Source: an uncultured delta proteobacterium
GTDB taxonomy: Bacteria > Myxococcota_A > Polyangia > Polyangiales > Polyangiaceae
Assembly: GCA_963716725.1 (NCBI GenBank)
Contig: CAVQUB010000021.1
Location: 352,001 to 416,000 of the forward strand
Reading direction: 5' to 3'
DNA length: 64,000 nt
The position numbers and the translations under genes were made by a program. The notes beneath the pieces were generated by a model. The model did no database searches, was not told the origin of the DNA, and worked only from the letters and a program-made list of their open reading frames with translations. This document shows, piece after piece, positions 37,621-64,000 of the stretch; position 1 is the stretch's first letter; the number at the start of each line of letters is the position of its first letter.

Positions 37621-38693
37621 CCAGACGCGGGCCTTTTACGGCCTGCAGTTTCATCCGGAGGTGACCCACACGCGCCAGGGCGGGCGCATCCTCGAGCGTT
37701 TCCTGTTCGAGATCTGCGGCTGCGAGGCCTGTGGAATCCGCGCAGCATCATCGATGACGGCATCCAGCAGCATGCGCGAGCAGATCGGCGACGGCCGCGT
37801 GGTTCTCGGCCTGTCCGGCGGCGTCGATTCGTCGGTGGTGGCGGCGATGCTGCACCGGGCAGTCGGCGACCGACTGGTCTGCGTGTTCGTCGACAACGGC
37901 CTGCTGCGCCTGCACGAGGGCGACCAGGTGATGGCGACCTTCGCCGAGCACATGGGCGTTAATGTCATCCGGGTGAATGCCGAGGACCGCTTCCTCAAGG
38001 GCCTCAAGGGCGTGGCCGATCCGGAGCAGAAGCGCAAGATCATCGGCAACCTGTTCATCGATATCTTCGAGGAGGAGGCGGCCAAGCTCGAGGACGTGGC
38101 ACTTCCTGGCACAGGGCACCATCTACCCGGACGTGATCGAGTCGGCCGGCGCCGCATCGGGCAAGGCGCACGTGATCAAGTCGCATCACAATGTCGGCGG
38201 TCTGCCGGACTACATGAAACTCCAGCTGGTCGAGCCGCTGCGCGAGCTGTTCAAGGACGAGGTGCGGCGGATCGGCGTCGAGCTGGGCCTGCCCTCCGAG
38301 ATGATCTACCGCCATCCGTTCCCGGGCCCTGGGCTGGGCGTGCGCATCCTCGGCGAGGTGCAACAAGGAGTACGCCGACATGCTGCGCCGGGCGGATGCG
38401 ATCTTCATCGAGGAACTGCGCAAGGCCGATCTGTACGACGAGGTCAGCCAGGCCTTCGCGGTGTTTCTGCCGGTCAAGTCGGTCGGCGTGGTCGGTGACG
38501 CACGGCGCTACGAGTACGTGATCACGCTGCGCGCGGTGAAGACCGTCGATTTCATGACCGCGCAGCTTCGCCCATCTGCCGTTCGAGTTTCTCGAGCAGG
38601 TTTCGCAGCCGCATCATCAACGAGGTGAACGGCGTCTCGCGCGTGGCCTACGATATCTCGAGCAAGCCGCCGGCCACGATCGAGTGGGAGTGA
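37621..38693 (+). CDS. guaA: GMP synthase (glutamine-hydrolysing), 3' part, with several indels
   Basis: [55 protein letters not shown] and [10 protein letters not shown] are spread over several frames. Confidence 0.95.
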
Positions 38694-38845
38694 CCGGAAT
38701 TTTTAACACATTGATTTAAAACGATAAAATAAATCCAATTGATAATATAATCTGCATCGTCAATGGTATTTTTCATGGTATTTCCGAGTGCTGTAAGGCA
38801 GAAAGCAGCAATACCATGAGTGGCAGATTGGCGTAATCATGGTAT
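38676..38845 (+). repeat. att site 1 (attL-like): guaA core + right arm
   Basis: ACGATCGAGTGGGAGTGA; IHF-like TAACACATTGATT; AATGGTATTTTTCATGGTATT at 38762; ATACCATG-N19-CATGGTAT at 38811-38845. Confidence 0.9.
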
Positions 38846-38882
38846 CAGCGGTCGGCACTCAGATATCGCGTTCTGAACGAGC

Positions 38883-38958
38883 ATGGCGTGATTTAGGGCT
38901 TTAAGCACGCCAAATATGACTATAATGTGGCGTGAATAAGTGCTAGAATCGCGCCATG
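38883..38958 (+). promoter_or_regulatory. Tandem TGGCGTG...CACGCCA inverted-repeat operators upstream of fic
   Basis: Two palindromes flank a TATAAT; the same arrangement recurs at ~63,586-63,661. Confidence 0.6.
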
Positions 38959-40102
38959 AAGTGGATATGGCAACAGCCCGACTGGCCAGATTTTCGCTAT
39001 GACAATCGCGCGCTCAATGATCGGGAACTTGAATTTCGCCTGAACTCAGAGCGCCTGGCGGGCAGCTTTGATGCGCTACCGATGGCGTCCCAAGAGGATG
39101 CCACGATTGACTTGATGCTTTCCGAGGCCATCAAAACCAGCGCCATTGAGGGCGAGGATCTGGACAGAGAGTCGGTCAGGTCATCGCTGCTCTCTTTAAT
39201 TACATCGGATACGCTACCGGACAACTCAGACCAGAAAGCTGCTGGGGCTGCATCGCTGCTGGTGGACGTTCGCAAGAACTGGCAAACATCCCTGACGCAT
39301 GACCTGCTGGGCAAGTGGCAGTCCATGGCTGTCCCGGAGCAGCGCTACACGTCTATTCTGCGTGGCGCATACCGCAACGATCCTTCACCGATGCAAATAG
39401 TGAGCGGGCCTTACGGGCGGGAAAAGGTTCACTATGAGGCCCCGCCAGCGACTCAGGTGCCTGATGAAATGGCGAAGGCTTATCGACTGGTACAACCAAA
39501 CCAGTCCTTTGAGCGGGGATAAGACAATACACGGGATCGCAAGAGCAGGTATTGCTCATCTCTGGTTCGAGGTGATTCACCCCTTCGATGATGGTAATGG
39601 TCGAGTCGGCAGGGCGATCGCTGACCATGCGCTTTCGCAGTCTCTCGGCTATCCAACCACGGCTTGTCTTGCCACGGCGATAGAGGGGGATAAAAAAACC
39701 TATTACCTGCAACTGGAGAAAGCGAGTCGTGGAAGCCTGGATGTTAACGTTTGGCTGGATTATTTCGCAGACACAATAATCAAGGCACAGGAAATTGCCA
39801 GGGAAGAAGTGGACTTTGTACTGGCCAAGACACGTTTCTACGAAGCCTATGGCGACCAGCTGAATGACCGGCAGGCCAGGATGGTATCGCGGGTATTCGC
39901 TGAAGGTCGAAAGGGCTTTGAAGGCGGAATAACGACTAAAAAATATGAAGCGATTACCAAGTGTCCCAATCGAACGGCCAGCCGTGATCTTTCTGACCTG
40001 GTTGCCAAGGGTATCATCATCCCGTTACCAGGTGGTGGCAGAACAACCCGATATGAGTTGACGATTGTTGAACCGGCTCAGTCTGGTCTGATGAGGAAAT
40101 GA
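38956..40102 (+). CDS. Fic family protein (DUF4172-like N-terminus, Fic motif, C-terminal HTH); frameshift near 39,480
   Basis: MKWIWQQPDWP; HPFDDGNGRVGR; TASRDLSDL; split over two ORFs. Confidence 0.85.
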
Positions 40103-40174
40103 TTTTCTTCGCTCTGGAGCGAGCGATTTTATCTGCACAAGCCTGAACGATTTAATGAATTTCCATTTTGTCCT

Positions 40175-41551
40175 ATGAACGTCGATACACTCAAAGAAAA
40201 ACTGGCTGATATCGATGCAGATACCTTGCGGAATTTTATATTCGACCTCTACCTCCGCTATCCGGAGTTGAGCGACAAGATCGAAGCATTGACATTGGCA
40301 AATGATCCGGTCGCCCTGTCCAGGGTGCTGCGCAAGCGTATTGCATCGCTGAAACGAGGGCGGAGGTTTATCGATTATCGGGCGAGTTTTGATTTTGCAC
40401 GCGAACTGGAAGCGACCCTCGCCGACATTGAAAGCGGACTGCTGGAGCGCTCACCGGAACATGCGTTTGATTTGGTCGACCGGTTCCTGGCGACGGCAGA
40501 ATCGGTGCTCAACCGTGTCGATGATTCTGGCGGGGCAGTGGGCGAGGTATATCGCCAAGCCGTACTGTTGTGGTTGACGGCGGCTAAAGGCTGGCGGGAT
40601 GCCAACGTCGACTGGCTCGAGCGGATATATCAGCTGTATCAGCAGAATGATTATGGTGTGCTTGATCCGCTATTGCCAAATGCCAACCTGCTGTTGACGC
40701 CGGATCAGCTGAAGCAACTTGCCTGGCGGTACGAAAACGCGTTGCGCAAGGCGTTAAAATCTCCCGAACAAGAAGACAAACTCAATCTCGTGGCCTTGCG
40801 TAGCGGCGTGGCATTAGGACAGATAGCCGATGCCTTGCGTGATCCTGCCTTATACGAGCGATCGGTATTGATACATTCGCCACAGCCAAACAATCTGCAA
40901 ATGAAATCGATTTGTGAAAAATATTTGCAGTATGAGCAGCCCGAGACGGCAATGCGTTATCTGAACCAGGCATGGGAGGACCGTTTTGAGCGTGATCGTC
41001 TGGAATTGCTGGATAAGGTCTGTGTGAAAACGGGTGACCGGAAACAGCTTAAAGTGATTCGTTCTCGGCTGTTTCAGAGCGAGCAGAGCTACCCCAGTTT
41101 CACGCGATATCTGGAGGCCTTGGACGAGGATGAGAAAGAGAAAGCGTGTAGCTCAGCAATCAAGCAAGCCGAACAGAGTGGCAATATCGTACTCAGCGCA
41201 GATCTGTTATTAAACCTGAGCCAGACGGAGAGAGCTCAGGCCTTAGTCTTAGCTCGGCATCAGGAGTTGGCGGAGTGTTTTTATGACAGTCTGCTGAGGC
41301 TGGCCAAGGCGTTTGAAAAAGCGGATTGCAATCTGGCGGCTACGGCGTGCTACCGCGCCTTGTTGCTGGATATCCTGGCACAGGCGCGCAGTAAGGCTTA
41401 CGGCCATGGTGCACGGTACTATAAAAAGCTGGAAGCGCTGGCGAAGCGGATCAAGGAATTCAAACCACTGCCAACACATCACGCCTTCGTGCAGCAATTG
41501 CACTCGGCGCATGGGCGAAAGAAAAGTTTTTGGGCGCGACTGGAATCATGA
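40175..41551 (+). CDS. All-helical hypothetical protein (DUF6880-like)
   Basis: RVDDSGG motif; C-terminal KAYGHGARY...HGRKKSFW. Confidence 0.7.
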   Translation: MNVDTLKEKLADIDADTLRNFIFDLYLRYPELSDKIEALTLANDPVALSRVLRKRIASLKRGRRFIDYRASFDFARELEATLADIESGLLERSPEHAFDLVDRFLATAESVLNRVDDSGGAVGEVYRQAVLLWLTAAKGWRDANVDWLERIYQLYQQNDYGVLDPLLPNANLLLTPDQLKQLAWRYENALRKALKSPEQEDKLNLVALRSGVALGQIADALRDPALYERSVLIHSPQPNNLQMKSICEKYLQYEQPETAMRYLNQAWEDRFERDRLELLDKVCVKTGDRKQLKVIRSRLFQSEQSYPSFTRYLEALDEDEKEKACSSAIKQAEQSGNIVLSADLLLNLSQTERAQALVLARHQELAECFYDSLLRLAKAFEKADCNLAATACYRALLLDILAQARSKAYGHGARYYKKLEALAKRIKEFKPLPTHHAFVQQLHSAHGRKKSFWARLES

Positions 41552-41616: not shown

Positions 41617-41717
41617 TTTCTGAACATGGTATTTTTCATGGTATTACCGATTAGCAGGAAAATAAGCCATTGAATATAAAAGATAAAAATGGCTCGTTTA
41701 CAATCGAGTGGGAGTGA
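41617..41717 (+). repeat. att site 2: left arm + core; right arm absent
   Basis: CATGGTATTTTTCATGGTATT at 41625; ACAATCGAGTGGGAGTGA at 41700-41717; no ATGGTAT boxes downstream. Confidence 0.9.
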
Positions 41718-41898
41718 CTGGCACTCGCAGGCAACTACAGGAACCAAAAGCACAAAAACTTGCGTAATTCATCAGTCGGCTGGAACTATCTCTGGAATAT
41801 CGGCGAGCGGAACAGAGGGTGACAGCCCCATCTTCCAAATCCTGACGTGGACGTCGGCGAAGCGTTTTGACGTCTGTAAGTGCGGATTTCTTGCTCAT
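41718..41898 (-). pseudogene. Decayed N-terminus of a ferritin-like/bacterioferritin gene
   Basis: MSKKSALTDVKTLRRRPRQDLEDGAVT...RLMN...CLR resembles the LTDV.TLR.RARQ..E.GAVT N-terminus of proteobacterial ferritin-like proteins. Confidence 0.5.
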
Positions 41899-45673: not shown

Positions 45674-45899
45674 GGGGGACTCCCTTGGTTGAGGTTGCAG
45701 CGACAGCCGTGGCGCGCGGGGTCTGCTGCGTGTAGGCGATGGCACCGACGCGGCGCTTGAACTTCGCGCCGAAGTTGAGCCCGTCCTGCACATGACATGT
45801 GCGCGACAACTCTTTCGCAGCAAGTTTACGACCGAGCCTGCGTGTGCGTCTGTGCGGTGCCGTACGTCTTCAGCCAAGCTGGAGCGCAGGCTCTGGCCA

Positions 45900-46700
45900 C
45901 CCTAGTTCGACAGCAACCGTCGTAATTCCCTGATTTGCATAGAGGCGACCCTGCCGGCTGCCACTACAACAAGGACAGTTGGGTATCTTGTGTCGGCTTC
46001 TTCAGGATCAGCGCGGCCAGGACGCCGGCCTGTTGGGTGTTGATGGCGGTGATGCCCGAGATCGGCGCCGCCTGGTTGATGCTCACGCGGTGGCGTTGAA
46101 TGCGTCGCAGCGAGCCAGTGCCTTTTCGGGACTGAGATCGCTCTTGGTTAGCTTCAGTCGCTGGCGCATCACCCGGTAGATGATCAACGCCATGAAGCAC
46201 AGCATGGCGTGCGCGCGGATCCGCTCGGCAGCCGGTGGTACACCGGAGCGATCTCGATTTCGGACTTGAGCACGCGGAACCCGCGGAACCCGCGTTCGAT
46301 GTCGGCCAGCGCCTTGTAGGGCTGCACGACCTTGGCCGGCGTCAGGTCGGCCACATTGGAAACCAGCAGCAGCTTGCCGTCCATCAGCTCGGCCTGCGCC
46401 AGTGCTGGCTCGTCCACCGTATAGCTGAACAGCTCGCTCTTCAGGTCGACCTTCACGATCCGCACCTGGTGGGCGTCACAGACCTCGTGATACAGCCGCG
46501 CCTTCGCGCCACTGCCCGACAGCTTGCGGCACCGGGCCTTCACGCCTAGGTCTTGTCCGTCGAGCTTGCCGGCCCAGTGGTTGGCCTTTTCCTGCAGCGC
46601 GGCGATGGGCTCGCGCCGCAGCACCGTCTACTCCTTCGCACTCTCTGGGTGATGCGCCATCACCAAGCGCAGTCCTTGCCAGCAACGCCCGCTTGCGCAC
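45900..46700 (-). mobile_element. IS1634-like DDE transposase remnant
   Basis: YKALADIERGFRVLKSEIEIAPVYHRL and IRAHAMLCFMAL in shifted frames; probable terminus CCTAGTTCGACA near 45,900. Confidence 0.7.
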
Positions 46701-47021: not shown

Positions 47022-47275
47022 TTTCTGAGCATGGTATTTCACATGGCACTAAGATACATGACCGATATTAACTACATGAAAATAATAGAAAATAATTGCT
47101 TATTTACCATCGAGTGGGAGTGACAGGAATTTTTAAAACATTGATATAAAACGATAAAATTAATCCAATTGATAATGTAATCTGCATCGTCAATGGTATT
47201 TTTCATGGTATTTCCGAGTGCTGTAAGGCAGAAAGCAGCAATACCATGAGTGGCAGATTGGCGCAATCATGGTAT
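47022..47275 (+). repeat. att site 3: left arm + core + right arm (attP-like junction)
   Basis: Core at 47109-47123; right side nearly identical to 38694-38892. Confidence 0.92.
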
Positions 47276-47384: not shown

Positions 47385-48637
47385 TTATTTCAGTGCCTGC
47401 CAACCAGGTACGGCCTTGGTGAACTCTTCTTGAAATGCCGGACGTTTGATGTTGTCCTTTTTGACTTCGAGTGCGAAGTCACGCCAGCGAGATGGATCAC
47501 GCAGCACATCAACCAACACATGGTGGACCTTCTTCATTACCTGTGCCTTGCGGGTGTATTCCCTGCGCGTGGCGTTGGTCTTGAGGTTGCCCAGTCCTGA
47601 TATATAGTATTTTAATATTGCCTCGGGATACCTGCCTTCAAGACGCTTGGCGGTCTGCAGTTCATAGGCGCTGTCCCAAGCGTAGAGGGGGTAACGGCTT
47701 CGGGTCAGCACCGCCACCGCTTCCTCGTACTCCTTGCGGTGCATGCGGATACGAAGTTGCTCCGTGTCCCGGGCGTTTTCCAGCCGTGCAAGGATTTTCG
47801 CTTCGTAACACTTCCACTCAGTGACCGTGCATAGTTTCCCAAATGTCTTGTACTTGTCGCAGGTCAGAGAATCGATCGCCTGATCAAACTGTAGTGCCAG
47901 GTAGCGTTCACGATTGCCGGCGGATTTGACACGCTTGGCAACGAACTGACGCAATTCATCCATGCGGCCTTTTCCCTTGAGTAGTCCTGTTTCCGCGACC
48001 TCCATGGCCTTCTGTTTTTCACCGGCCTTCCAGTGGAAATCCGCCAAGTCGAAATAGTCGGTGCCAGTGGCCAGTTTACGCTGGCGCAGCTCGAGATATT
48101 TTCCACGGTCACCGAGGCGGCGATAAATGCGGCGGGCATGGTCGAGTTTCCAGTCCCCTCCCATGGTCTCGAAGGCTTGCGCCAGTGCGCGCCAATCGGC
48201 GTCGGTGTAACAGGCCGCATAGGCCAGGTCGTAGAGGTCGTCGTCAAGTCCAGCATTACCGCTTTCGATATAGGGCAGGGCATTGTCGAGAAGTTTTTGC
48301 CGGTAGTCTGAATCGATCTTTTTCGTGAAAGCCCCTGTGCGATCTCTTGCAACAGGCTCGAAGCATGGATGTCGGCATCATAATCGCCGCCACCGTATGC
48401 ATCCAGCTCGTCCAGATCTGGCGCGAGTTCGGCCCACAGGGCAAGCAGTTTTTCACTCTCGGACTGCTTCTTCCGACTGGGTGACAGGGCAGTATGCCTG
48501 TTCAGGTAGTCGAGGCACTCACGCCGGACATCGGGGCGTGAGGATGCCACGCGTACGATCAGATCGACCAGCTTTGCTTTCGGCGCGGTCTCCGGCAAAG
48601 CGGCCAGTGGATCATCCTGTTTACGTTTTCCCGCCAT
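47385..48637 (-). CDS. All-helical hypothetical protein, frameshift near 48,320
   Basis: ORFs 47864..48637 and 47385..48164 join into one protein ending ...W...VKKDNIKRPAFQEEF. Confidence 0.6.
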
Positions 48638-48646
48638 AACGAACTG

Positions 48647-51873: not shown

Positions 51874-52066
51874 CAGTGTGGTCATTTCACAGCGCTCTTG
51901 CGCTGAGCTTCTTGACGCAGGTCAGTGCATAATTGGGTTGATTACATTAGATTATATACGATTCTATCCCGTTTTATTGGACAGGGCGTCACGGCAGTAG
52001 CTTTGATGGTCGTACCTGTCGAAATCGCTTTTTATTGAAAATCGGTTGGAGCCAGAGGGCGAACAA

Positions 52067-52249
52067 ATGATTGAAGACCGCTGGTTGTCGGTAGAGGAAA
52101 TCGCGGCTTATCTCGGGGTCAAGCGCGACACCGTCTACAAGTGGATCGAGCGCAAGGCCATGCCGGCTCACAAGGTTGGCCGACTATGGAAATTTAGAAA
52201 AGACGAAGTCGACCAATGGGTCAGGCACGGCGGCGCGAGCGAGGGCTAA
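52067..52249 (+). CDS. Excisionase-like helix-turn-helix (HTH_17) protein
   Basis: DRWLSVEEIAAYLGVKRDTVYKWI...MPAHKVGRLWKF. Confidence 0.85.
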   Translation: MIEDRWLSVEEIAAYLGVKRDTVYKWIERKAMPAHKVGRLWKFRKDEVDQWVRHGGASEG

Positions 52250-52473: not shown

Positions 52474-55191
52474 ATGAAACCCTTGCTGGAAAAACACTGG
52501 CACCACCTGCCTCGGGACGAGGTGCTGGACCTGCTCGACACCGATGCGAAGAAAGGCCTGGACCGTTTCGAGGTCGAGGAGCGACAGCAGAACTTCGGTC
52601 CCAACGTTCTGACGCAGCGCAAGGGCAAGGGGCCACTGCTGCGTTTCCTGCTGCAGTTTCACCAGGCGCTGGTCTATATCCTGCTGGCCGCGGTCGTGAT
52701 CAAACTCATGCTGGGCGCCTGGGTGGATGCCAGCGTGATTTTCGGCGTGGTCCTGCTCAATTCCATCATCGGCTTCGTGCAGGAGGGCAAGGCCCTGAGC
52801 GCACTGGCGGCGCTGGCAAGCGCGCTGACCACGGCTGCCACTGTGGTGCGCGCCGGCGAGAAGCATCGCATAGACGCCCGTGAACTGGTGCCCGGCGATA
52901 TTGTTTTACTGGCCTCCGGCGACAAGGTACCGGCGGACCTGCGCCTGCTGCACGACCGTAACCTGCAGATCGACGAATCCGCCTTGACCGGCGAGTCAGT
53001 GCCGGTGGAGAAGTGTTTGGGCGAACTGGCCCACGACGCCGTGCTGGCGGAGCGCGCCAACATGGCCTATTCCTCCACCCTGGTGACCTATGGCACCGGG
53101 GTCGGCGTAGTCACCGAAACCGGCGACAGCACCGAGATCGGCCGCATCTCAGAACTGATCGCCGGCGCCGAAGTGTTGGCCACGCCGCTGACCCGCAAGA
53201 TTGCCCGCTTCAGTCACGTACTGCTCTATGCGATTATCGTGCTGGCAGGCCTGACCTTCGCCGTAGGCCTGTGGCACGGGGGCTCGGCGGTGGACATGTT
53301 TATGGCCGCCGTAGCGATGGCTGTCGCCATGATCCCGGAAGGACTACCCGCCGTCCTTACCATCACCCTGGCCATCGGTGTAGCACGCATGGCCAAACGC
53401 CATGCCATCATCCGCCATCTACCTGCAGTCGAGACCCTCGGCAGCACAACCGTGATCTGCTCGGACAAGACCGGCACCCTGACCCGCAACGAGATGACAG
53501 TGCAGCGTCTCTGGGCGGGTAACAAAATGGTCGAGGTCACCGGCGTGGGTAACACGCCGCAAGGCGAACTGTCGCAAAATGGCCAGGCGCTGGCGCTCAG
53601 CGATCACACTGCCCTATCGGAATTGCTACGTGCTGGCCTGCTATGCAACGACGCAGTGCTCAAGCAGGAGAATGGCGCCTGGAAGATAGAAGGTGACCCC
53701 ACCGAAGCTGCACTGCTGGTCGCGGCCGGCAAGGCCGGGGTCGATGCGGAAAAAACACATGAAGCCTACCCCAGACTCGATGCAATTCCCTTCGAGTCAC
53801 AGCACCAGTACATGGCCACCCTGCATGGCGGTGACAAACCGGTTATCTATCTCAAGGGCTCGGTCGAGAGCCTGCTTGCACGCTGTGCCGATGTCCTGAG
53901 CGCCGACGGTGAGAGCCGGCCGCTGGACACTGCCGAGGTGCATGCCCAGGTCGAGGCAATGGCGCGTCAGGGCATGCGGGTGCTGGCATTCGCCCGTCTC
54001 AATGTTCAACCGGATACCACAGCAGTCGATCACCCACAGGTTGAGGGCGGCCTCACCTTTATCGGGCTGCAGGGCATGATCGATCCACCACGCGAGGAGG
54101 CCATCCTCGCAGTCAAAGAATGTCAATCGGCAGGCATCCAGGTCAAGATGATCACTGGTGATCACGCCACAACGGCGGCAGCCATCGCGGGTCAGATCGG
54201 TTTGGGCGGCCCGCTGCCAGATGGCGAGGTCCCGGACGTGCTAACCGGTAGTGAACTGGCGGCGCTGAGCGACGCCGAACTTATAGACGCTGCCGCCGAT
54301 ATCGAGGTGTTCGCCCGCGTTACGCCGGAACAGAAGCTGCGCCTGGTGGAAGCCCTGCAAGCACGCGGCGAGGTGGCGGCCATGACCGGCGACGGGGTCA
54401 ACGATGCCCCGGCCCTGCGCCGCGCTGATATCGGCGTGGCCATGGGCATCAACGGTACCGAGGTGTCGAAGGAGGCCGCCGACATGATACTTACCGACGA
54501 CAACTTTGCCACCATCGGAGCGGCGGTGGAGGAAGGCCGTGGTGTATTCGCCAATCTAACCAAGTTCATCACCTGGATCCTGCCGACCAACGCCGGCCAG
54601 GGACTGGTGATTATCGTCGCGGTGATGGCGGCCCAGCCGTTGCCGGTATTGCCGGTGCAGGCGCTATGGATCAACATGACGACCGCCGTGCTGCTCGGCC
54701 TAGCCCTGGCCTTCGAGCCCAGGGAGCCGGGCATTATGCGGCGCCCGCCGCGCCGGCCGGATGTGCCTATCCTCGGCGGTGAACTGATTGTCCGCATCCT
54801 GCTGGTGGGTCTGCTGCTGCTGATCGGCGGCTTCGGTCTGTTCGAATGGGCCCTGTACCGGGGCGCCAGCGAAGACGAGGCGCGCACTATCGCGGTCAAT
54901 GTGTTTGCCGTGGGGCAGTCCTTCTACCTGCTCAACTGCCGCTCGCTGCGCTTTTCGATGTTTCGCCTCGGTTTGTTCAGCAACCCGTGGATCTGGGCCG
55001 GTATCGCCGCCATGATAGTGGCGCAACTCCTGTTCACCTATCTGCCGGTGATGAACTGGCTGTTCCATACCGCGCCAATCGGCTGGATGGACTGGCTGCA
55101 CATCGTGTTGGTCGGACTGGTGATCTATCTGGCCATCGGTGCGGAAAAGGCGTGGCGGCTGCGGCGTGAGGCGGGTGACAGTGAAACATGA
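52474..55191 (+). CDS. Cation-transporting P-type ATPase
   Basis: TGES, IPEGLP, CSDKTGTLT and MTGDGVND motifs. Confidence 0.95.
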   Translation: MKPLLEKHWHHLPRDEVLDLLDTDAKKGLDRFEVEERQQNFGPNVLTQRKGKGPLLRFLLQFHQALVYILLAAVVIKLMLGAWVDASVIFGVVLLNSIIGFVQEGKALSALAALASALTTAATVVRAGEKHRIDARELVPGDIVLLASGDKVPADLRLLHDRNLQIDESALTGESVPVEKCLGELAHDAVLAERANMAYSSTLVTYGTGVGVVTETGDSTEIGRISELIAGAEVLATPLTRKIARFSHVLLYAIIVLAGLTFAVGLWHGGSAVDMFMAAVAMAVAMIPEGLPAVLTITLAIGVARMAKRHAIIRHLPAVETLGSTTVICSDKTGTLTRNEMTVQRLWAGNKMVEVTGVGNTPQGELSQNGQALALSDHTALSELLRAGLLCNDAVLKQENGAWKIEGDPTEAALLVAAGKAGVDAEKTHEAYPRLDAIPFESQHQYMATLHGGDKPVIYLKGSVESLLARCADVLSADGESRPLDTAEVHAQVEAMARQGMRVLAFARLNVQPDTTAVDHPQVEGGLTFIGLQGMIDPPREEAILAVKECQSAGIQVKMITGDHATTAAAIAGQIGLGGPLPDGEVPDVLTGSELAALSDAELIDAAADIEVFARVTPEQKLRLVEALQARGEVAAMTGDGVNDAPALRRADIGVAMGINGTEVSKEAADMILTDDNFATIGAAVEEGRGVFANLTKFITWILPTNAGQGLVIIVAVMAAQPLPVLPVQALWINMTTAVLLGLALAFEPREPGIMRRPPRRPDVPILGGELIVRILLVGLLLLIGGFGLFEWALYRGASEDEARTIAVNVFAVGQSFYLLNCRSLRFSMFRLGLFSNPWIWAGIAAMIVAQLLFTYLPVMNWLFHTAPIGWMDWLHIVLVGLVIYLAIGAEKAWRLRREAGDSET

Positions 55192-55321
55192 AATGGTCCT
55201 GGACACTAAGCTGCCTGTCCGCGGTCATCAACGACCAAAGGATTTCAAAGCGGGTCGCGCGACATGGCGAGGTGATGGAGTTTAGGAAAGACAACAAGTT
55301 TGTTGAAAAGGTAACTGATAG

Positions 55322-55501
55322 ATGAATGAGAATCCCATCTTAATATCAGACCCGTCCGTTATGGACTGGGTAGTCGGACTCATGCTTCCAGCTGGTCTTG
55401 GGATTGTAGGTGCCATAGTGGTATGGCGCACCGCCCGAATGCTCAAGCGCTTAAGCAGAAAATCGAATCGGAAAGGAAGGTCGTCTGGAGAGAAGCCATG
55501 A
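55322..55501 (+). CDS. Possible small single-TM protein
   Basis: MNENPILISDPSVMDWVVGLMLPAGLGIVGAIVVWRTARMLKRLSRK...: hydrophobic helix followed by a basic tail. Confidence 0.35.
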   Translation: MNENPILISDPSVMDWVVGLMLPAGLGIVGAIVVWRTARMLKRLSRKSNRKGRSSGEKP

Positions 55502-55559
55502 GAAATCAGCAATGCGCGTCGCGGCGATCGATATTAGCTCTGTGGGATTGGCGATGGAA

Positions 55560-55747
55560 ATTATGTGCCGTTCATCGAACGGTTCTTTGACACCCGGACG
55601 GTGGACTTCGTACATGGCGTGGAAATCATTGCGCTGGGCATGGCGCTTTTTATGATTCTTGAACTGGAAAAACTCGCACTGCGCAAGTGGCGCAGGAAGC
55701 ACGATGGCCGCCACGGCAGTGCAGGGCGGAGCGAGGCCAAATCATGA
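55560..55747 (+). pseudogene. C-terminal remnant of another P-type ATPase
   Basis: YVPFIERFFDTRTV...GMALFMILELEK parallels YLPVMNWLFHTAPI...GLVIYLAIGAEK of the upstream ATPase. Confidence 0.55.
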
Positions 55748-57411
55748 CGGTGTTCCCGGACGTGTTCACTGAGATGGCGGTGCTGCTGCTGTTTGCCGCG
55801 GCGGTGGGTGCTCTGGGCGTACGCCTGCGCCAGCCCTTGATCGTCGCCTTTATCGCTGTGGGAATAATGGTTGGCCCGTCGGTGCTCGGTTGGGTCAGTG
55901 CGAACGACAAGGTCGATTTGCTGGCAAAGTTCGGGATCACGCTGCTGCTGTTCGTCGTTGGCTTGAAACTGGACCTGCACATTATCCGCACCATGGGGCC
56001 GGTCGCCCTGGCGACGGGACTCGGCCAGGTGATATTCACCAGCGTCGTCGGCTACCTGATCGGTTACGCCTTTGGCATGACGCCGGTCACGGCCCTGTAT
56101 GTAGCGGTCGCGTTGACATTCTCCAGCACCATCATCATCGTCAAATTGCTTTCCGACAAACGCGAGGTGGATACGCTGCACGGTCGAATCGCCCTGGGTT
56201 TCCTGATCGTGCAGGATCTGGTCGTCGTGTTGGTCATGATTGGCCTGAATGCCCTGGGTGCCAGCGGTGATGTCTCGTGGACCCAAGCGGCATTCGCCGT
56301 ACTAGTCAAGGGTGTGGGGTTTCTTCTGCTGGTCGGGTTGGCGATGCGGTACCTGCTACCGCGGCTGCTCCACATGCTGTCACGCTCCCAGGAATTGCTG
56401 GTGTTGTTCGGCATTGCCTGGGGATTAGCCTTGGCGGCCCTTGGGGTGACGCTCGGTTTCAGCAAGGAGGTGGGTGCCTTTGTCGCCGGCGTGTCACTGG
56501 CCTCCACGCCTTACCGGGACGCCCTCGGCGCGCGCCTGACGAGCGTGCGCGACTTTCTGTTGCTGTTCTTCTTTCTCGACCTGGGGGCGCAACTCGACCT
56601 GGGGCTGCTGGGTGCCCAACTGGTGGAGTCGCTGGTGTTCTCGCTGTTCGTCCTGATCGGTAATCCCCTCATCGTCATGGTCATCATGGGCGTACTGGGT
56701 TATCGCAGTCGTACCGGGTTCCTGGCCGGGCTCACGGTGGCGCAGATCAGCGAATTCTCCTTGATCCTGGGGGCGCTGGGTCTGAGCCTCGGCCACATAA
56801 GCGCCGAGACCATGGGCCTGATAACCCTGGTCGGGTTGATCACCATCAGCGCCTCTACGTACATGATCATCTATTCTCATCCGCTGTATGAGCGCCTGGC
56901 GCCCTGGCTCGGGGTCTTCGAGCGCCGACAGCCTCATCGGGAGGCCGTGCAGGATAGCGTGCCGGATGATGCGGTGCCATTGGTCGTGTTGTTCGGGCTG
57001 GGGCGTTACGGCAACGGCATCGCCCGGACGTTGCGTGAAAGGGGCTGGCGGGTGCTCGGCGTCGATTTCAACCCGGACCTGGTTCGCGCGGGAGACGCCA
57101 CGGGACACCCGGTCATGTTCGGAGATGCCGAAGATCCCGAGTACATCGCAACGTTGCCGCTTGGACGAACACATTGGGTAGTGAGTACAGCGCGTGAACG
57201 CCACGTCAATCTATCGCTTATCCACTCGCTGCGCAGTCTCGGTTACAGCCGCCGGATCGCTATTACGGTGCAATCGCCGGATGACGCGGCCAGACTGGAA
57301 CATGCGGGCGCCGATCTGATTCTGGTGCCGTATGCGGACGCCGCCCGCGAGGCGGCTGATCGTATCATGGGGCCGGGATATGAGCCGCAACCGTTACAGG
57401 AGGCGCAATGA
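55744..57411 (+). CDS. CPA2 cation:proton antiporter with TrkA-N domain (Kef-like)
   Basis: Multi-TM; QISEFS; GLGRYG...GDAED motifs. Confidence 0.9.
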   Translation: MTVFPDVFTEMAVLLLFAAAVGALGVRLRQPLIVAFIAVGIMVGPSVLGWVSANDKVDLLAKFGITLLLFVVGLKLDLHIIRTMGPVALATGLGQVIFTSVVGYLIGYAFGMTPVTALYVAVALTFSSTIIIVKLLSDKREVDTLHGRIALGFLIVQDLVVVLVMIGLNALGASGDVSWTQAAFAVLVKGVGFLLLVGLAMRYLLPRLLHMLSRSQELLVLFGIAWGLALAALGVTLGFSKEVGAFVAGVSLASTPYRDALGARLTSVRDFLLLFFFLDLGAQLDLGLLGAQLVESLVFSLFVLIGNPLIVMVIMGVLGYRSRTGFLAGLTVAQISEFSLILGALGLSLGHISAETMGLITLVGLITISASTYMIIYSHPLYERLAPWLGVFERRQPHREAVQDSVPDDAVPLVVLFGLGRYGNGIARTLRERGWRVLGVDFNPDLVRAGDATGHPVMFGDAEDPEYIATLPLGRTHWVVSTARERHVNLSLIHSLRSLGYSRRIAITVQSPDDAARLEHAGADLILVPYADAAREAADRIMGPGYEPQPLQEAQ

Positions 57412-57432
57412 TTCTGAACCGGGAGGGAGCAT

Positions 57433-57939
57433 ATGAATAAGACGGATCAAGGTCTTGATTGGTCGACGGTCGTGTCGCGGGCGCTGCTGTTCTCAATCAT
57501 GTGGTGGGCGCTCACCGATGGTACGGCCGGGTCCTTGTGGATCGGTGTGCCGGCGGTGATATGTGCGACGGTCGTCAGTGTGGCGCTGGTACCGCCGTTA
57601 GGTCTTGTCTGGAGGGAAGTGATGGGATTTGTACCCTTCTTCCTTTGGCATTCGCTGAAAGGGGGCGTGGATGTGGCGTGGCGGGCGTTTCATCCGCGTC
57701 TGCCAATCACGCCGGAACTTATTGAGTACCCGCTTCGACTGCCGCCAGGCCTGCCAAGGGTGATCCTGGTCAATACGGTGAGCTTGCTGCCGGGTACGCT
57801 AAGCGCGGAACTGGGTGGCCAAGTATTGAAGGCTCATGTATTGGATAGTCTGGGAGACTTTCTGGCTGAACTGGAGACTTTGGAACAACGCGTGGGGTGC
57901 ATGTTTAGAAGCGCCTCTGATGATTTCCCGCGGAGGTGA
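57433..57939 (+). CDS. mnhE: Mrp/Mnh Na+/H+ antiporter subunit E
   Basis: GGVDVAWRAFHP...NTVSLLPGTLS...HVLD. Confidence 0.85.
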   Translation: MNKTDQGLDWSTVVSRALLFSIMWWALTDGTAGSLWIGVPAVICATVVSVALVPPLGLVWREVMGFVPFFLWHSLKGGVDVAWRAFHPRLPITPELIEYPLRLPPGLPRVILVNTVSLLPGTLSAELGGQVLKAHVLDSLGDFLAELETLEQRVGCMFRSASDDFPRR

Positions 57940-58928
57940 ATGAGATGCAACGATTCAAAAAGATTCTTTGTGTAATGGAACATGGGGAGGCCAGTAAGCC
58001 CGCATTGGAAAGGGCGGTGGCACTGGCCGAGAACAACCAGGCTGAACTGATGGTTGTGGATGTGATTCCACGCTTATCGGCCGGTATCGGTATGCCCGAT
58101 GGCAGCCCGATCTCTCGAGACTACCAGGCGGCAATGGTGAGCGAGCATGAAGCGCGGATAGCGGCCCTTGTTGAACCATACCTTCAACGACTTGATATCC
58201 AGCACAAGGTGTTGCTGGGGACATCCTTTCTCGAGGTCATCCGAGCGGTATTGCGCAACGGGCATGATCTGGTGATCAAGTGTCCCGAATCGCCGAGCTG
58301 GCTGGATCGCTTTTTCTCCGGTGACGACATGCACCTGCTGCGTAAGTGTCCCTGCCCCGTCTGGCTTGTCAAACCTGAGGCACCCAGATCCTATAAACGC
58401 ATCCTGGCAGCCGTGGATGTGGATGAATCGTATTTGCCAACGGAGCTGGCGACACGGCACGCATTGAACGTTCAAATTCTGGAAATGGCGGCCTCCCTGG
58501 CGCTCTCGGAGTTCGCCGATCTGCATGTTGTGCATGTCTGGGATTCTGTTTACGAATCAATCAGCGGTTTTGTTATTTCATCAGATATATCGCCAGAGAA
58601 AGAAGCCTTGAATGTTGAACAAGAGCGGAGACAGCATCAACAGTGGCTGGACACATTTTTGCGCAACAGTGGGAACAAAGCGACCCGGGATGCCCTGGGC
58701 TATCTCAAGTCCCAAACCCACCTGATAAAAGGGGGAGCCCGCAAGGAAATCCCGGCGCTGGCCAAACGTTTGCAGGTCGACTGCATCGTCATGGGGACCG
58801 TGGCACGTACGGGTATTCGCGGCTTCTTCATGGGCAATACTGCGGAGACCATTCTCGAGCAGATCGATTGCTCGGTGCTGGCGATCAAACCGCCCGGCTT
58901 CGTCACCCCCGTCGCTCTGGAGGATTGA
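57936..58928 (+). CDS. Universal stress protein (UspE-like, tandem domains)
   Basis: DMHLLRKCPCPVWLVK and MGTVARTGIRGFFMGNTAE motifs. Confidence 0.9.
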   Translation: MNEMQRFKKILCVMEHGEASKPALERAVALAENNQAELMVVDVIPRLSAGIGMPDGSPISRDYQAAMVSEHEARIAALVEPYLQRLDIQHKVLLGTSFLEVIRAVLRNGHDLVIKCPESPSWLDRFFSGDDMHLLRKCPCPVWLVKPEAPRSYKRILAAVDVDESYLPTELATRHALNVQILEMAASLALSEFADLHVVHVWDSVYESISGFVISSDISPEKEALNVEQERRQHQQWLDTFLRNSGNKATRDALGYLKSQTHLIKGGARKEIPALAKRLQVDCIVMGTVARTGIRGFFMGNTAETILEQIDCSVLAIKPPGFVTPVALED

Positions 58929-58934
58929 TCGGGC

Positions 58935-59660
58935 ATGCAGCCTCTTTACCTGGCACTGTTTCTGCTGCTGAACCTGGGTGCCGGCATGTGGCGGGTCTTA
59001 CGTGGTCCGACCGCCGCTGATCGTATGCTGGCCGCGCAGCTGTTAGCGATGGCGCCGCTCGGCCTGGTTTGGGTAATGGCCGGGCTGGTGCCGGCGATAA
59101 CGATCTTGTTGGCTATGGCGGTCATCGCCTTGCTGGCGGGTAACAGTCTTTTTCATGGGGATATCGACTTGTCGGCTGAATCGGTAGGGAAATACGCACC
59201 TTCAGCAGCACCGGCTTCACGCCCTTGTAAGGCCCCGTTCATTTCAACATGGGTGGTTGCTGCACTGATCGTGGTCGCGACGCTTGCAGCAGGTTACCAA
59301 CTCTTCCACGTCACAATAGGGGAAGCCGTCATGGGCCGCTTTATTGTCCTGGCGTCCATATCAATGGCAGTTCTGAACGCGAGATGGCGCGTGCTTCGAC
59401 TGCCGGTCTTTGCTCCAGGTGATGTCCTGGTACCCATCACCCAAGGTTTGGTGCTGGCCAGAGAAGGGGCTGGCCGATTACTTGCCCACTGTGTGGAACG
59501 CTGGACTGAAATCACGCAGGCACTGGATCGGCATGTGCGATCCCTCATGACGAGAAGCGATATCGCCGGATTGCTGGAAGAGATGCTCCTTCGTTGGAGC
59601 CCTGCGCTGTCGCTGTTGTTGCTGCTGGGGTTATTGGTTGCATGGTTGGCGGCATCATGA
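58935..59660 (+). pseudogene. Fusion of an MnhF N-terminus to the tail of a large Mrp-type subunit (deletion product)
   Basis: WRVLRGPTAADRMLAAQL is MnhF-like and is abruptly followed by an unrelated membrane sequence with a PGD motif. Confidence 0.55.
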
Positions 59661-59838
59661 TGTGTTTCGGAAAGTCGTTCATCTGGCAGAAGGCATCGAT
59701 AATGAAACACCCGTTCGCACCACACTGCTGCTCTACAAGGCGAAAACCTTGCACGGTGTCGGGCTTCTGGCGTGATCCTTTGAGCCTGTTCGACTTTACC
59801 GTTATGGCGATCGCGCAATCCGACGCGGGGCGAGCTCG

Positions 59839-62523
59839 ATGAAGCTTGAACTTGACTTGGAAAGGCAAGCAATTACTGCCTGGCACACCTTGAAGGCGGA
59901 CGAGTGCGCCTCGCGGTTGCAAGTGGAGGCCGCGAACGGGCTGGATCCGGCGGAGGTGCAGGAGCGCCTGGAGCACCATGGCGAAAACCGTCTTGCCGAG
60001 AAGCCACCACGGCCCAAATGGCTCGCCTTCCTTGATCAGTTCAAGAGCCTTCTGATCCTGGTGTTGGTCGGGGCCGCCTGGCTGGCGGGCGCCATCGGCG
60101 ATATCAAGGACGCGGTGGTGATCATGATCGTGGTATTGTTCAATGCGTTGCTCGGCTTCTGGCAGGAACGCCGGGCCGAGCAAACATTGGCGGCGCTTAA
60201 GAAAATGCTCTCGCCAGCGGCCCGTGTGCGCCGCGGAGGCCGTGTCGAGGAGATCGACGCCAGGTATCTGGTGCCGGGAGACGTCGCGTTACTGGTAGCG
60301 GGTGGCCGGGTGCCGGCGGATGGTCGGCTGCTGGTCACCCACAATGCCGAGGTCGACGAGTCCGCGCTCACTGGCGAGTCCCACCCGGTGGGCAAAGAGG
60401 CGTACGGGCTGCTCCCGGACAAGGCACCGCTGGCTGAACGCACCAACATGGCCTTCATGAACACGGTAGTTACCCGTGGACGGGCGGAATTGCTGGTGAC
60501 CGGCACCGGTATGGCCACCGAGATGGGGCGGCTCTCCGATATGTTGGCCGAGGCGGAGCCCGGCCCCACCCCGCTTCAGGTCCAGCTCGACGGGCTTGGT
60601 CACCGGCTGGCGCTAATCGCCGGCGTGGTGATCACGCTGATCTTCTCCCTGGGATTGCTACGGGGCGAGCCATTGGTGCAGACCGTCCTCACCTCTATCG
60701 CATTGGCGGTGGCCGCCATACCGGAAGGTTTGCCGGCCGTGGTGACGTTGACACTCGCCATCGGCATGCACCGCATGGCCCGGCACCGTGCCATCGTCAA
60801 GAAGTTGGCTGCGGTGGAAACCCTCGGCTGCACCACGGTTATCTGCTCGGACAAGACCGGCACCCTCACCCTGAACCAGATGACCGCGCGCGCCCTGGTC
60901 TACGGAGGACGGCGTTTTGCGGTCTCCGGTGAGGGTTACGCCGCAGAGGGAATGATCGAAGCAGAGGACGGCAGCCTGCTGCCGGCTCTCGAGCCGCTAC
61001 TGCATCCAGCGGCGCTGGCTAATGACAGCCGCATTCGCGACGGGCAGCTGATCGGTGATCCCACCGAAGGGGCATTGCTAGCACTGGTGGCCAAAGGCGG
61101 GCTGGATGTTGAGTCACTAGCGGCGCACCATCCGCGCATCGCCGAGATCCCCTTCGATTCAGCACACAAATTCCAGGCCACCTTCCACCAAGATGGCGAA
61201 TTGGTGCACCTCTACGTGAAAGGCGCGCCGGACGTGCTGCTCGCCCGCGCAAGCCGCCAGCTCGAACCCGACGGTGCCCGCCCGCTGGATGCGGGTTACT
61301 GGCAGGCCGAGAACGAACGGCTCGCCGGCAGCGCCATGCGGGTCTTGGCGGTGGCCGCCAAGACCCTCCCGGCAAAGGCGTTCGACCCGGCTGGCGATTT
61401 GATGGTCCATGTGGCCGAGCTCGATTTTGCCGCGCTGATCGGCATCATCGACCCGCCGCGCCCGGAGGCACGCGATGCCATCGCCCTGTGCCGACGCGCC
61501 GGGATTGAGGTCAAGATGATCACCGGCGACCACAAGATTACCGCCGCCGCTATCGCCCGGGAACTGGGGCTGGAGGGCGAGGTGATCGAGGGGTGGGAGC
61601 TGGATGCGCTTTCGGCAGAGACGCTGGCTACGAAGATCAAAGACATTGCTGTGTTTGCTCGTGTCGCCCCAGAGCACAAGGTGCGCATCGTGCAGGCGCT
61701 GAAGGCCGACGGCCACGTCACTGCCATGACCGGCGATGGGGTCAACGACGCCCCGGCGCTGAAACACGCCGATATCGGTGTGGCCATGGGCGTAACCGGT
61801 ACCGAGGTGACCAAGGAAGCGGCCACCATGGTACTGACCGACGACAACTTCGCCACCATTGTGCGGGCGGTCAGGGAGGGACGCGCCATCTACGACAACA
61901 TCGTCAAGTTCGTGCGCTTCCAGCTCTCCACCAACATGGGTGCCATCCAGACCGTGCTGGGCGCGAGCCTGCTGGGCTGGTCCACGCCATTCACCGCGAT
62001 CCAGATCTTGTGGATCAACATCATCATGGACGGCCCGCCGGCCATGAGCCTGGGCGTGGAGCCCGCGCGCGACGGGATCATGGACGAGCCGCCGCGACAG
62101 ACTGATGCCCGCATACTGACCGGGCCGAGGCTGGGGCGCCTGCTTGTTTACGGTCTGACCATGGCGGTCGGCACGCTGGGTCTGTTCCACTACGCCCAGC
62201 CCCGGGGCGAGGCCTATGCCCTGACGCTGGCCTTTACCACCTTCGTGCTGTTCCAGTTCTTCAACCTGTTTAATGCCCGCGCCGAGCACGGTTCGGCGTT
62301 CAATGGTCACTTCTTCCGTAACCGCTGGATATGGCTCTCCTTGGCGGCGGTGCTGACGCTGCAGGCATTGGTTGTCCATTGGGCGCCCTTGCAAGACGTA
62401 TTCGGCACCGCCGACCTGCAGCTTTCGGACTGGGGTTTATCAGCGTTGGTCGCTTCAAGCGTGCTGCTGCTGGACGAGGGACGCAAGCTGATTCTGCGGC
62501 TGTCCACAGGTGGTTCGCGATGA
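59839..62523 (+). CDS. Cation-transporting P-type ATPase (close relative of 22729..25428)
   Basis: DKTGTLT, YDNIVKFVRFQLSTN and INIIMDGPPAM motifs. Confidence 0.95.
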   Translation: MKLELDLERQAITAWHTLKADECASRLQVEAANGLDPAEVQERLEHHGENRLAEKPPRPKWLAFLDQFKSLLILVLVGAAWLAGAIGDIKDAVVIMIVVLFNALLGFWQERRAEQTLAALKKMLSPAARVRRGGRVEEIDARYLVPGDVALLVAGGRVPADGRLLVTHNAEVDESALTGESHPVGKEAYGLLPDKAPLAERTNMAFMNTVVTRGRAELLVTGTGMATEMGRLSDMLAEAEPGPTPLQVQLDGLGHRLALIAGVVITLIFSLGLLRGEPLVQTVLTSIALAVAAIPEGLPAVVTLTLAIGMHRMARHRAIVKKLAAVETLGCTTVICSDKTGTLTLNQMTARALVYGGRRFAVSGEGYAAEGMIEAEDGSLLPALEPLLHPAALANDSRIRDGQLIGDPTEGALLALVAKGGLDVESLAAHHPRIAEIPFDSAHKFQATFHQDGELVHLYVKGAPDVLLARASRQLEPDGARPLDAGYWQAENERLAGSAMRVLAVAAKTLPAKAFDPAGDLMVHVAELDFAALIGIIDPPRPEARDAIALCRRAGIEVKMITGDHKITAAAIARELGLEGEVIEGWELDALSAETLATKIKDIAVFARVAPEHKVRIVQALKADGHVTAMTGDGVNDAPALKHADIGVAMGVTGTEVTKEAATMVLTDDNFATIVRAVREGRAIYDNIVKFVRFQLSTNMGAIQTVLGASLLGWSTPFTAIQILWINIIMDGPPAMSLGVEPARDGIMDEPPRQTDARILTGPRLGRLLVYGLTMAVGTLGLFHYAQPRGEAYALTLAFTTFVLFQFFNLFNARAEHGSAFNGHFFRNRWIWLSLAAVLTLQALVVHWAPLQDVFGTADLQLSDWGLSALVASSVLLLDEGRKLILRLSTGGSR

Positions 62524-62585: not shown

Positions 62586-62918
62586 ATGATAGAGGTTAGA
62601 GAATACCTCGATGCTGAGGGAAACAGTCCTTATGCCAAATGGTTCGATCGTCTGAATGTGACCGCTGCGGTCAAGGTGGCGACGGCAGTTCATCGGATGG
62701 AGCTGGGTAACTTATCTAATGTTAAAGGTGTGGGTGCCGGCGTCTATGAGTACCGAATCGATTTTGGTCCTGGCTATCGAATCTACTTTGGCAAGGACGG
62801 AGACCGCTTGGTGATATTGCTCGCGGGTGGTACCAAGAAGCGGCAGGACGCAGACATTGCTGCTGCAAAAGAGCACTGGCGCGGCTATAAGCGCCGCAAA
62901 CGGCAAGAGGTGACATGA
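62586..62918 (+). CDS. Type II toxin, RelE/ParE (HigB-like addiction module killer)
   Basis: GVYEYRIDFGPGYRIYF...LLAGGTKKRQDADI. Confidence 0.9.
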   Translation: MIEVREYLDAEGNSPYAKWFDRLNVTAAVKVATAVHRMELGNLSNVKGVGAGVYEYRIDFGPGYRIYFGKDGDRLVILLAGGTKKRQDADIAAAKEHWRGYKRRKRQEVT

Positions 62919-63241
62919 TGGCTCTGACGAAAGATTTTAAGGACACCATACAGGCACGTGCCCAACGGGATCCCGCGTTTCGCAAGGCCCTGCTACAAGA
63001 AGGGGTCGAATGCCTGCTCGCTGGTGATGTCGATACCGGCAAGGCGGTATTGCGCGACTATATCAACGCGACGATCGGGTTCGAGGAACTCTCCCGGGTC
63101 TTCGACAAGTCGAGTAAGAGTTTGATGCGTATGTTCGGGCCGAAAGGGAATCCCCAGGCGAGTAACCTGTTTGCGGTGATCAATTACCTGCAGGAGCAGG
63201 AGGGGGTACGCCTGGAAGTCAAAGCCCGGAAAGTGGCCTAG
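62915..63241 (+). CDS. HTH antitoxin (toxin-first organisation)
   Basis: Overlaps the toxin stop; GFEELS...KSLMRMFGPKGNP. Confidence 0.85.
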   Translation: MMALTKDFKDTIQARAQRDPAFRKALLQEGVECLLAGDVDTGKAVLRDYINATIGFEELSRVFDKSSKSLMRMFGPKGNPQASNLFAVINYLQEQEGVRLEVKARKVA

Positions 63242-63293
63242 GGTGTTGTTTAGAAGTGTTCAAGCGGCAATTTTTTCGAGTATTTTGAAGGAT

Positions 63294-63547
63294 TTTCTGA
63301 GCATGGTATATTTCATGGTATTAACAATTAGCAGGAAAAAAAGTCATTGAAAATGAAAGACAAAAATGGCTTGTTTACAATCGAGTGGGAGTAGGGTGTA
63401 TTAGCAACTCATTGAAATATAGCGATAAAACAACTCTAATTAATAATATAATCTGCATCATCAATGGTATTTTTTATGGTATTTTCTGCGGCTGGCAGAG
63501 CTAAAATCAGCGATACCATGAGAGGCGAACTGATGCAGTCATGGTAT
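63294..63547 (+). repeat. att site 5: left arm + core (TAG variant) + right arm
   Basis: ACAATCGAGTGGGAGTAG at 63377-63394; arm boxes at 63302, 63463, 63513 and 63540. Confidence 0.92.
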
Positions 63548-63658
63548 TTTCAAAGCGCCGTTTAGATTCCAGTCTTTGATCCAGGATGGCGTTATTGCGG
63601 GCTATAATCGCGCCATATATCCATGTAATATGGCGTGAATAAGTGCTAGAATCACGCC

Positions 63659-64000
63659 ATGAGATGGATATGGCAACAATCCTATTGGCCCGATTTCTGC
63701 TACGACGTGCTTGCTCTCGAACACCGGGAGCTTGAGTTTCGCCTGAACTCAGAGCGTCTGGCGGGCAGCTATGATGCACTTCCTGTGGCATCTCAAAAGG
63801 ATGCCACGATCGACTTGATGCTTTCCGAGGCCATCAAAACAAGCGCCATTGAGGGCGAGAAATTGGACAGAGAGTCGGTCAGGTCGTCGCTGCTCTCATT
63901 AATTACATCTGATACGCTACCGGACAACTCAGACCAGAAAGCTGCTGGGGCAGCTTTGCTTCTGGTGGATGTTCGCAAGAACTGGCAAACATCCCTGTCA
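63659..64000 (+). CDS. Second Fic family gene (start of cassette 5), runs off the right edge
   Basis: MRWIWQQSYWPDF...DLMLSEAIKTSAIEGE...; open to the window end and highly similar to the gene at 38956. Confidence 0.85.
   Translation, partial: MRWIWQQSYWPDFCYDVLALEHRELEFRLNSERLAGSYDALPVASQKDATIDLMLSEAIKTSAIEGEKLDRESVRSSLLSLITSDTLPDNSDQKAAGAALLLVDVRKNWQTSLS

Follow-up and report, generated by a model that had tools for sequence, protein, structure and literature searches.

A stretch of 64,000 nucleotides (the window; G000:C21:352001-416000) was analysed from contig C21 of the genome of an uncultured delta proteobacterium (G000, 84% complete). C21 continues beyond the window and ends at 448,439, equivalent to window position 96,439. 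From position 38,679 to the end of the contig, the 58 kb are, with good confidence, a tandem array of gene cassettes that lack an integrase and are bounded by attachment (att) sites. The cassettes are stacked at the 3′ end of a guaA gene that belongs to a gammaproteobacterium and was very probably mis-joined to the host contig. The probable helper is an integrative and conjugative element (ICE) or integrative and mobilizable element (IME) of the GIsul2 family. The site, the integrase and the helper principle are known; the length and prevalence of the arrays, one type of right arm (type A) and the crossing of hosts by whole cassettes are new. In the literature searched (openly readable texts, without supplements) no account was found of long integrase-less arrays at guaA, nor any published description of their length, spread, type A arm or polarity.

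The 13-mer ATCGAGTGGGA is present at exactly 38679, 41703, 47109, 51140 and 63380, always on the + strand, with no other copy in the window; its chance expectation in the 25 kb of the array is 0.0004 per strand. The resulting units measure 3,024, 5,406, 4,031 and 12,240 bp. Both the five positions and the lengths had been given correctly in an earlier reading of the window from its letters (the original prediction). The conserved module described there at every site is complete at three of them. Sites 3 (47022..47275), 4 (51054..51307) and 5 (63294..63547) carry a left arm, the core (at 47109, 51140 and 63380) and a type A right arm, all on the + strand. Site 1, the attL (38679..38845, +), has the core at the guaA stop and a type A right arm only, made up of an integration host factor (IHF)-like box at 38704, an ATGGTAT tandem at 38763, an inverted copy at 38811 and a distal copy at 38838. 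Site 2 (41617..41750, +) has a left arm, the core at 41703 and a short, different right side of the CTGGCA type. Extension of the contig to the right, proposed at that time as a way to find the terminal attR and an integrase, yielded six further cores in 32 kb (window-equivalent 64,931; 72,921; 77,190; 84,940; 91,406; 93,097) on the same strand, hence 11 sites in total; C21 stops short of any terminal attR, and no recombinase was found in the extension.

The architecture of the sites is that of arm-type attachment sites. An internal site is composed of a left arm with a CATGGTAT tandem at about -78 and an IHF-like box, the core, which at the guaA 3′ end reads GAGTGGGA, and one of several right arms. 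In the type A right arm an IHF-like box is combined with three ATGGTAT motifs: a tandem at +84, then an inverted copy after 49 nt and, after another 27 nt, a direct copy. The ICE-type right arm shows this trio of motifs at +142 to +150 together with CTGGCA repeats, of which the B-short arm keeps only some. The +49 and +27 spacings of ATGGTAT are kept in 28 and 31 of 38 type A arms and in 13 and 12 of 16 ICE-type arms; CTGGCA repeats occur in none of the 38 type A arms. With one mismatch to the consensus allowed, an IHF-like box was scored in 36 of the 38 type A right arms (5% of shuffles) and in 68 of the 82 left arms (3% of shuffles). By analogy with lambda and P4 biology, the ATGGTAT repeats could be the arm sites of the integrase and the CTGGCA repeats those of AlpA. 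Hairpins of the attC kind were rejected, as six of six sites folded no better than shuffles (z -0.84 to +1.32). These observations and the homology with the GIsul2 attR support the proposal that the sites are of the lambda/P4 type and not attC. No match to type A right arms was obtained in plasmids, and no parent element for them was found there or among 31 metagenome loci. A phage origin was set aside after one exact arm-plus-core pattern gave 0 matches in viral contigs, which is a weak test.

The left arms connect the array with GIsul2. Those of sites 2-5 are 93%, 68%, 92% and 89% identical to the GIsul2 attR (94 of 101 positions at site 2, 41703), and the range of 68-93% holds for 10 of 10 internal sites of C21. 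The left arm of the GIsul2 attLR is divergent, scoring 42 bits versus 92 for attR. Matches to the left arm were present in 3,959 plasmid records and in 1,619 of 5,426 E. coli genomes. An Acinetobacter baumannii locus (L036) was identified as GIsul2 from its int, sul2 and the published terIS; the element lies there at a secondary site. According to the openly readable text of PMC9376610, the GIsul2 integrase both excises and integrates an integrase-less, att-bounded unit, CR2-sul2. This pair shares with the C21 array the guaA 3′ end as target, the GAGTGGGA core and an integrase-less unit between two att sites, and the CR2 'terIS' published there matches site 2 at 17 of 19 nt when compared by eye. 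GIsul2 as described in that text has three sites with the integrase beside them, whereas the C21 array has at least 11 sites and no integrase was found in it; moreover, most of its right arms belong to a type for which plasmids gave no match, and its cargo is not antibiotic resistance.

Other islands are known at the same site. ICERspD18B (PMC7775301), ICE6775 (PMC7419628) and the PIMEs (bioRxiv 10.64898/2026.01.12.698999) carry their own P4-type integrase and AlpA, and such elements are the likely helpers of the cassettes; the openly readable texts on them describe no long integrase-less arrays. The C21 array has no P4-type integrase and AlpA of its own next to guaA and is not an IME. In Sedimenticola sp. 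BM503 (G002), two contigs open on the end of guaA, which is followed by an ICE-type arm and by genes for a P4-type integrase and a PFGI-1 ParB; this integrase is 85.5% identical to that of A. baumannii records carrying GIsul2. Near-identical PFGI-1-class ICE heads were noted at guaA on C84 and C30 (L027, L028) of this one metagenome-assembled genome, and one ICE head carries a 1,794-aa protein with a partial match to Avs4, below the cut-off.

No recombinase was found within the array. The G000 genome has 19 matches to the tyrosine recombinase family PF00589, none of them on C21; a serine resolvase, a P4 arm-binding domain and a GIsul2-type Int or AlpA, relics included, were found nowhere in it. 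The statement that the ~25 kb of array in the window hold no recombinase thus stands. In no integrase-less unit scanned was a relic of Int or AlpA found. A recombinase relic in each unit had been named beforehand as evidence against movable cassettes; the relics that do occur in units are of IS1634 transposases. PF00589 was likewise absent from inside the arrays of five of five other genomes (G048, G043, G180, G295, G008; two of the five single-contig), and the arrays closed at both ends (G043, G008) contain no tyrosine recombinase. Relaxase and conjugation Pfam families were absent from the open reading frames (ORFs) scanned on C21, a search that left out oriT. Tyrosine recombinases near the arrays of G001 (C12:103,541, 28 kb past the last arm) and G002 (C26:58,606) were rejected as cognate, being outside the arrays and not of the GIsul2 type. 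These results support an integrase that acts from outside the units. Of the two places suggested originally for a single integrase, in trans or further along the array, the former fits the integrases seen on guaA ICE/IMEs outside the units; the latter is possible for C21 itself, although it has no counterpart in the closed arrays of G043 and G008. The host genome G000 also has two equal-scoring pairs of adjacent tyrosine recombinase genes (C1:194,758-196,452 and C33:135,307-137,001), possibly a duplicated element.

Similar arrays are spread among sediment Gammaproteobacteria. A pattern scan detected the module in G001, an uncultured gammaproteobacterium (14 matches), and in G002 (26 matches). 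With two candidates scored per genome, 74 of the 301 genomes of the Sedimenticola order and 32 of 400 from its class had the module; an exact genome-wide pattern was too strict and returned 2 loci only. A GIsul2-type integrase (≥84% identity) was present in 13 of the 301 order genomes, many of which are fragmented, and 6 of these 13 were among the 74 with the module. Twenty-one further stretches from 20 genomes were picked among the best matches and larger contigs. In 13 of these stretches a cassette arm comes immediately after guaA and a GIsul2-type integrase is absent; in four (G081, G041, G242, G045) guaA is followed by an ICE-type arm, the integrase and a nearby AlpA; the remaining four did not include guaA. 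Where its context was seen, the GIsul2-type integrase is on an ICE/IME directly behind guaA. The arrays close on tadA in G043, G008 and G033; in G008 the terminal attR consists of host DNA ahead of tadA and is not a B-short arm. The order and position of units vary among the guaA arrays. The type A arm came first in 13 of 15 integrase-less arrays compared with 13 of 29 later sites (Fisher p=0.01). This polarity is only suggestive: the query whose best matches supplied the genomes contained a type A arm, related genomes do not count as independent, and each stretch was scored without its last site. In G037 (C1:2,768,600-2,770,700; L050), att modules lie about 1.4 Mb from guaA on the opposite strand, which may be a second or displaced array.

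Whole units recur. Among 73 units compared (median 4,150 bp, two of ICE size), several are found again att-to-att in other genomes at other array positions. Unit 1 recurs whole at 93-95% identity in three loci: L119 and L123, where it lies at guaA, and L130, where it is internal. Unit 3 is 91% identical as a whole to unit 2 of G295 and 87% to unit 1 of G043, and unit 5 is 82-87% identical to unit 3 of G180, unit 1 of G120 and unit 2 of G043. Unit 7 is found again in G048, there with a different type of arm. The homologue of unit 4 is partial, its first part lying directly at guaA in G281 (93% over 3.5 kb), and unit 2 had no whole homologue among the loci compared. A 2,483-bp unit is 99.9% identical between G002, where it is internal, and G085, where it is in first position; the neighbours differ on both sides and the guaA genes of the two genomes are 68% identical. 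The G002 copy could reflect mis-binning. Public contigs were also seen to switch neighbour at the 41703 core. The recurrence of units from att to att at other positions bears out their description as movable, and supports the view that integrase-less units may move as such across distant hosts. Joints of 41715 to 38724 in public runs X2 and X6, of the kind that had been proposed as a sign of circles, differ at 32 letters; they therefore belong to the arm of another cassette and were rejected as a circle of unit 1.

The following scheme would account for these observations. A visiting GIsul2-family ICE/IME would insert at guaA and supply Int and AlpA, with IHF probably bending both arms. Cassettes would excise as circles, or co-excise with the ICE and travel by its conjugation (cis-mobilisation), then integrate at the guaA-proximal site of the recipient and remain after loss of the ICE. 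Each insertion would leave an attP-like junction of left arm, core and right arm. Older units would shift outward and degenerate, either as the right arm becomes shorter or through deletion between two CATGGTAT tandems, with loss of the core and fusion of neighbours. Seven core-less fused sites were seen in 5 of 31 scanned stretches, one at window-equivalent 86,066 (G000:C21:438066) and six in G001, G002 and G004; a deletion between the CATGGTAT tandems of a left and a right arm would have lost the core and joined two cassettes in each.

Several points weigh against this scheme. Excision by attL x attLR, in which the island leaves without its cassette, was undetected in GIsul2 according to section 5 of the openly readable text of PMC9376610; this counts against the model because the model needs that step or loss of the ICE by another route. 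The data examined gave no instance of a circle, excision or transfer for any unit. The public evidence consists of short-read contigs, and the order of units on C21 is unconfirmed by reads. Other P4-type integrases elsewhere in G048, G008 and G043 could serve instead, and an integrase further on is possible for C21, which ends before the terminal attR. An integrase was found behind a type A arm at none of 31 metagenome loci (24 with ≥800 nt downstream; three integrase queries). The type A arm is thus tied to the GIsul2-family integrase through the shared arm motifs only.

It is unlikely, though the best of the alternatives, that each unit is a decayed ICE or IME that lost its integrase on the spot and is now seldom, if ever, mobile. 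Some right arms are indeed ICE attL arms with internal deletions (the last site of G085; the B-full and B-short arms), insertion sequence (IS) relics and fused sites are present in units, and decay is the route described for cis-mobilizable elements (CIMEs) in the openly readable text of PMC5704250. ICE decay is a plausible origin of the B-type arms. In contrast, the integrase-less units scanned are free of Int and AlpA relics, whole units keep their ends across distant hosts, one of them at 99.9%, and the type A arms are intact and uniformly spaced. In G085:C1 after 996,507 (L043), a four-gene block that may resemble Wadjet JetABCD lies behind an ICE-type attL from which an internal part is deleted.

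A different recombinase, specific for type A arms and encoded elsewhere in the chromosome or past the contig end, would make the array a true integron-like platform. Such an enzyme could explain why type A arms lack CTGGCA and plasmid matches and start 13 of 15 integrase-less arrays, and 68 of the 74 module-bearing genomes have no GIsul2-type integrase. The left arms and the distal right-arm motifs, however, are those of the GIsul2 family, and the closed arrays hold no recombinase; this explanation is considered quite improbable.

The presence of the array on a contig of a high-GC host was examined at its left end. A host GMC oxidoreductase gene (35973..37621, +; Pfam GMC_oxred_N) is cut about 110 residues before its end; in five of five loci from the same genus the alignment extends to 37,621-37,640 and the gene continues to the C-terminus that is missing here. 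DNA to the left of 37,621 has 64-71% GC and is colinear with five same-genus genomes; judged by its genes, this host is probably a myxobacterium. A probable chimeric join of 68%-GC host DNA to a gammaproteobacterial segment follows (37622..37626, unstranded), a fusion of mid-gene to mid-gene. The 3′ two-thirds of guaA (37626..38693, +) begin near codon 172 and contain several 1-nt indels, which are sequencing errors: single-base gaps number 10 in 1,070 nt against G001 and 6 against G002, and four are absent from public contigs. This fragment shares 74-85% nucleotide identity with 19 gammaproteobacterial guaA genes and 68% over 228 nt with the host's own guaA, which is present in full on C20 with a gene directly 3′. 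Tetranucleotide distance jumps at the join from about 0.1 to 0.3-0.6, and the segment of about 59 kb from there to the end of C21 (448,439) is the only low-GC run of ≥20 kb in the G000 genome. In four sediment or soil runs from four studies, the right of the join has a depth of 5-254 in most bins and the left 0-2.4; the low cover on the left is by itself no proof, because the runs were found by words shared with the stretch. No public contig crosses the join among the matches listed.

Taken together, these sequence comparisons strongly indicate that C21 is chimeric at about 37,622-37,626 and that the array comes from a Chromatiales-like gammaproteobacterium. The original prediction missed that the array is the DNA of another organism joined at ~37,625; the gene starts mid-way, is fused to the truncated oxidoreductase and is not of this genome. 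The ~59 kb of foreign DNA on C21 should hence be left out of any account of the host. A true horizontal transfer into the high-GC host would place the segment on one contig with host DNA, as is observed, and is nevertheless very unlikely: two genes are interrupted mid-frame at 37622-37626, where neither an att site nor an IS is present; indels cluster just after the join; the segment extends as far as the contig does; the module turned up in 0 of 200 other genomes in the order of the host; and in the four public runs coverage lies on the right side and hardly on the left.

That assembly has stacked strain variants of one guaA island into a false tandem is hardly credible: C21 is already chimeric at ~37,625, its tail has frameshifting indels and no public contig among the matches listed confirms the order, but the same architecture exists in single-contig genomes (G048, with 7 sites, and G008) and in the tadA-closed arrays of G043, G008 and G033, and site repeats of ~250 bp at 75-95% identity should be spanned if the assembly is from long reads, as the indel pattern suggests. 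Decay in place, a different recombinase and a false tandem are not strictly exclusive.

The nearest analogue of the array is the accretion of CIMEs, here with a GIsul2 integrase. CIMEs, as the openly readable text of PMC5704250 has it, keep attL and attR without integration or transfer genes, occur in tandem at the 3′ end of a gene and can be mobilised in cis by an ICE. The C21 units also have att sites at both ends and no integrase or transfer genes among the ORFs scanned. The CIMEs of that text are described as decayed ICEs, few per locus and mostly in streptococci, whereas the present cassettes are many small, recurring, intact units in genomes without a cognate ICE. No related ICE is in tandem on C21; ICE-plus-cassette tandems are present in G041.

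Integrons and integrase-less attC clusters are series of small cassettes, variable in order, whose cargo includes toxin-antitoxin, defence-like and stress genes. The array resembles them in these respects and in a hint of polarity. It is not an integron: there is no attC hairpin, IntI, attI or cassette promoter, the sites are double-stranded lambda-type sites with arms, and cargo lies on both strands. To call it an 'integron-like platform', as was done originally, is an overstatement, because a resident integrase, attI and cassette promoter are missing.

A bolder version is offered tentatively, as possible rather than probable. Type A cassettes may be dedicated minimal mobile units and not the ruins of ICEs, with an IHF box in place of the CTGGCA repeats in their right arm, captured preferentially next to guaA whenever a GIsul2-family ICE passes; guaA would then hold a time-ordered, integron-analogous library across sediment Gammaproteobacteria, and CR2-sul2 would be an escaped cassette. 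The probable array reading given at the outset already places the clinically important CR2-sul2, with its sul2 resistance gene, within a much larger environmental family of integrase-less cassettes. Many sediment Gammaproteobacteria keep such arrays without the enzyme that built them, and island finders that require an integrase would presumably miss them. The att profile offers a direct route to harvest cassette cargo, defence candidates included.

The cargo in the window is varied. Unit 1 opens with a DUF4172-Fic gene (38956..40102, +), split by a 1-nt indel near 39,475 and intact (381 aa) in homologues, followed by a gene for a DUF6880 protein (40175..41551, +; Pfam). Unit 2 has, by family matches, two MCRA/oleate hydratase family genes (42198-43835 and 43904-45877, both -) and an IS1634 transposase relic (45964..46624, -). 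Unit 3 (47385..50842, -) consists of two genes without a Pfam family, frameshifted here and intact in G295, and an AAA_14/DUF4143 ATPase gene (49667-50842). Unit 5 is a single DUF4172-Fic gene (63659..64000, +, running past the window) in 1,551 bp that end at site 6 (64,931). The Fic genes opening units 1 and 5 are 84.6% identical, and the cargo is thus not wholly unrelated from unit to unit, contrary to the original description. A repeated inverted motif, possibly an operator, lies upstream of both (38882-38955 and 63585-63661).

Unit 4 is the largest of those complete in the window. Fragments at its start (51535-52249) presumably resemble a TIR domain, with no family match. A small helix-turn-helix protein (52046..52249, +) has profile matches to MAD1 (84 bits, cut-off 80) and to the excisionase family; it was not adopted as a directionality factor, because the helper elements use AlpA. 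An ion-transport block (52474..62523, +) comprises a P-type ATPase (52474-55191), a Na+/H+ exchanger-TrkA protein (55687-57411), MnhE, Usp, an MnhF-like protein and a second P-type ATPase (59839-62523). It is followed by a RelE/ParE-family toxin and a probable antitoxin (62586..63241, +), the latter judged from its position. Further along C21 (window-equivalent 64,931-96,439), the cargo includes a helicase, a zinc ABC transporter, phospholipase D, AsmA, a beta-lactamase-fold/META protein, HigBA, an arsenic operon and a second AAA/DUF4143 gene, together with IS66, ISKra4 and DDE transposases.

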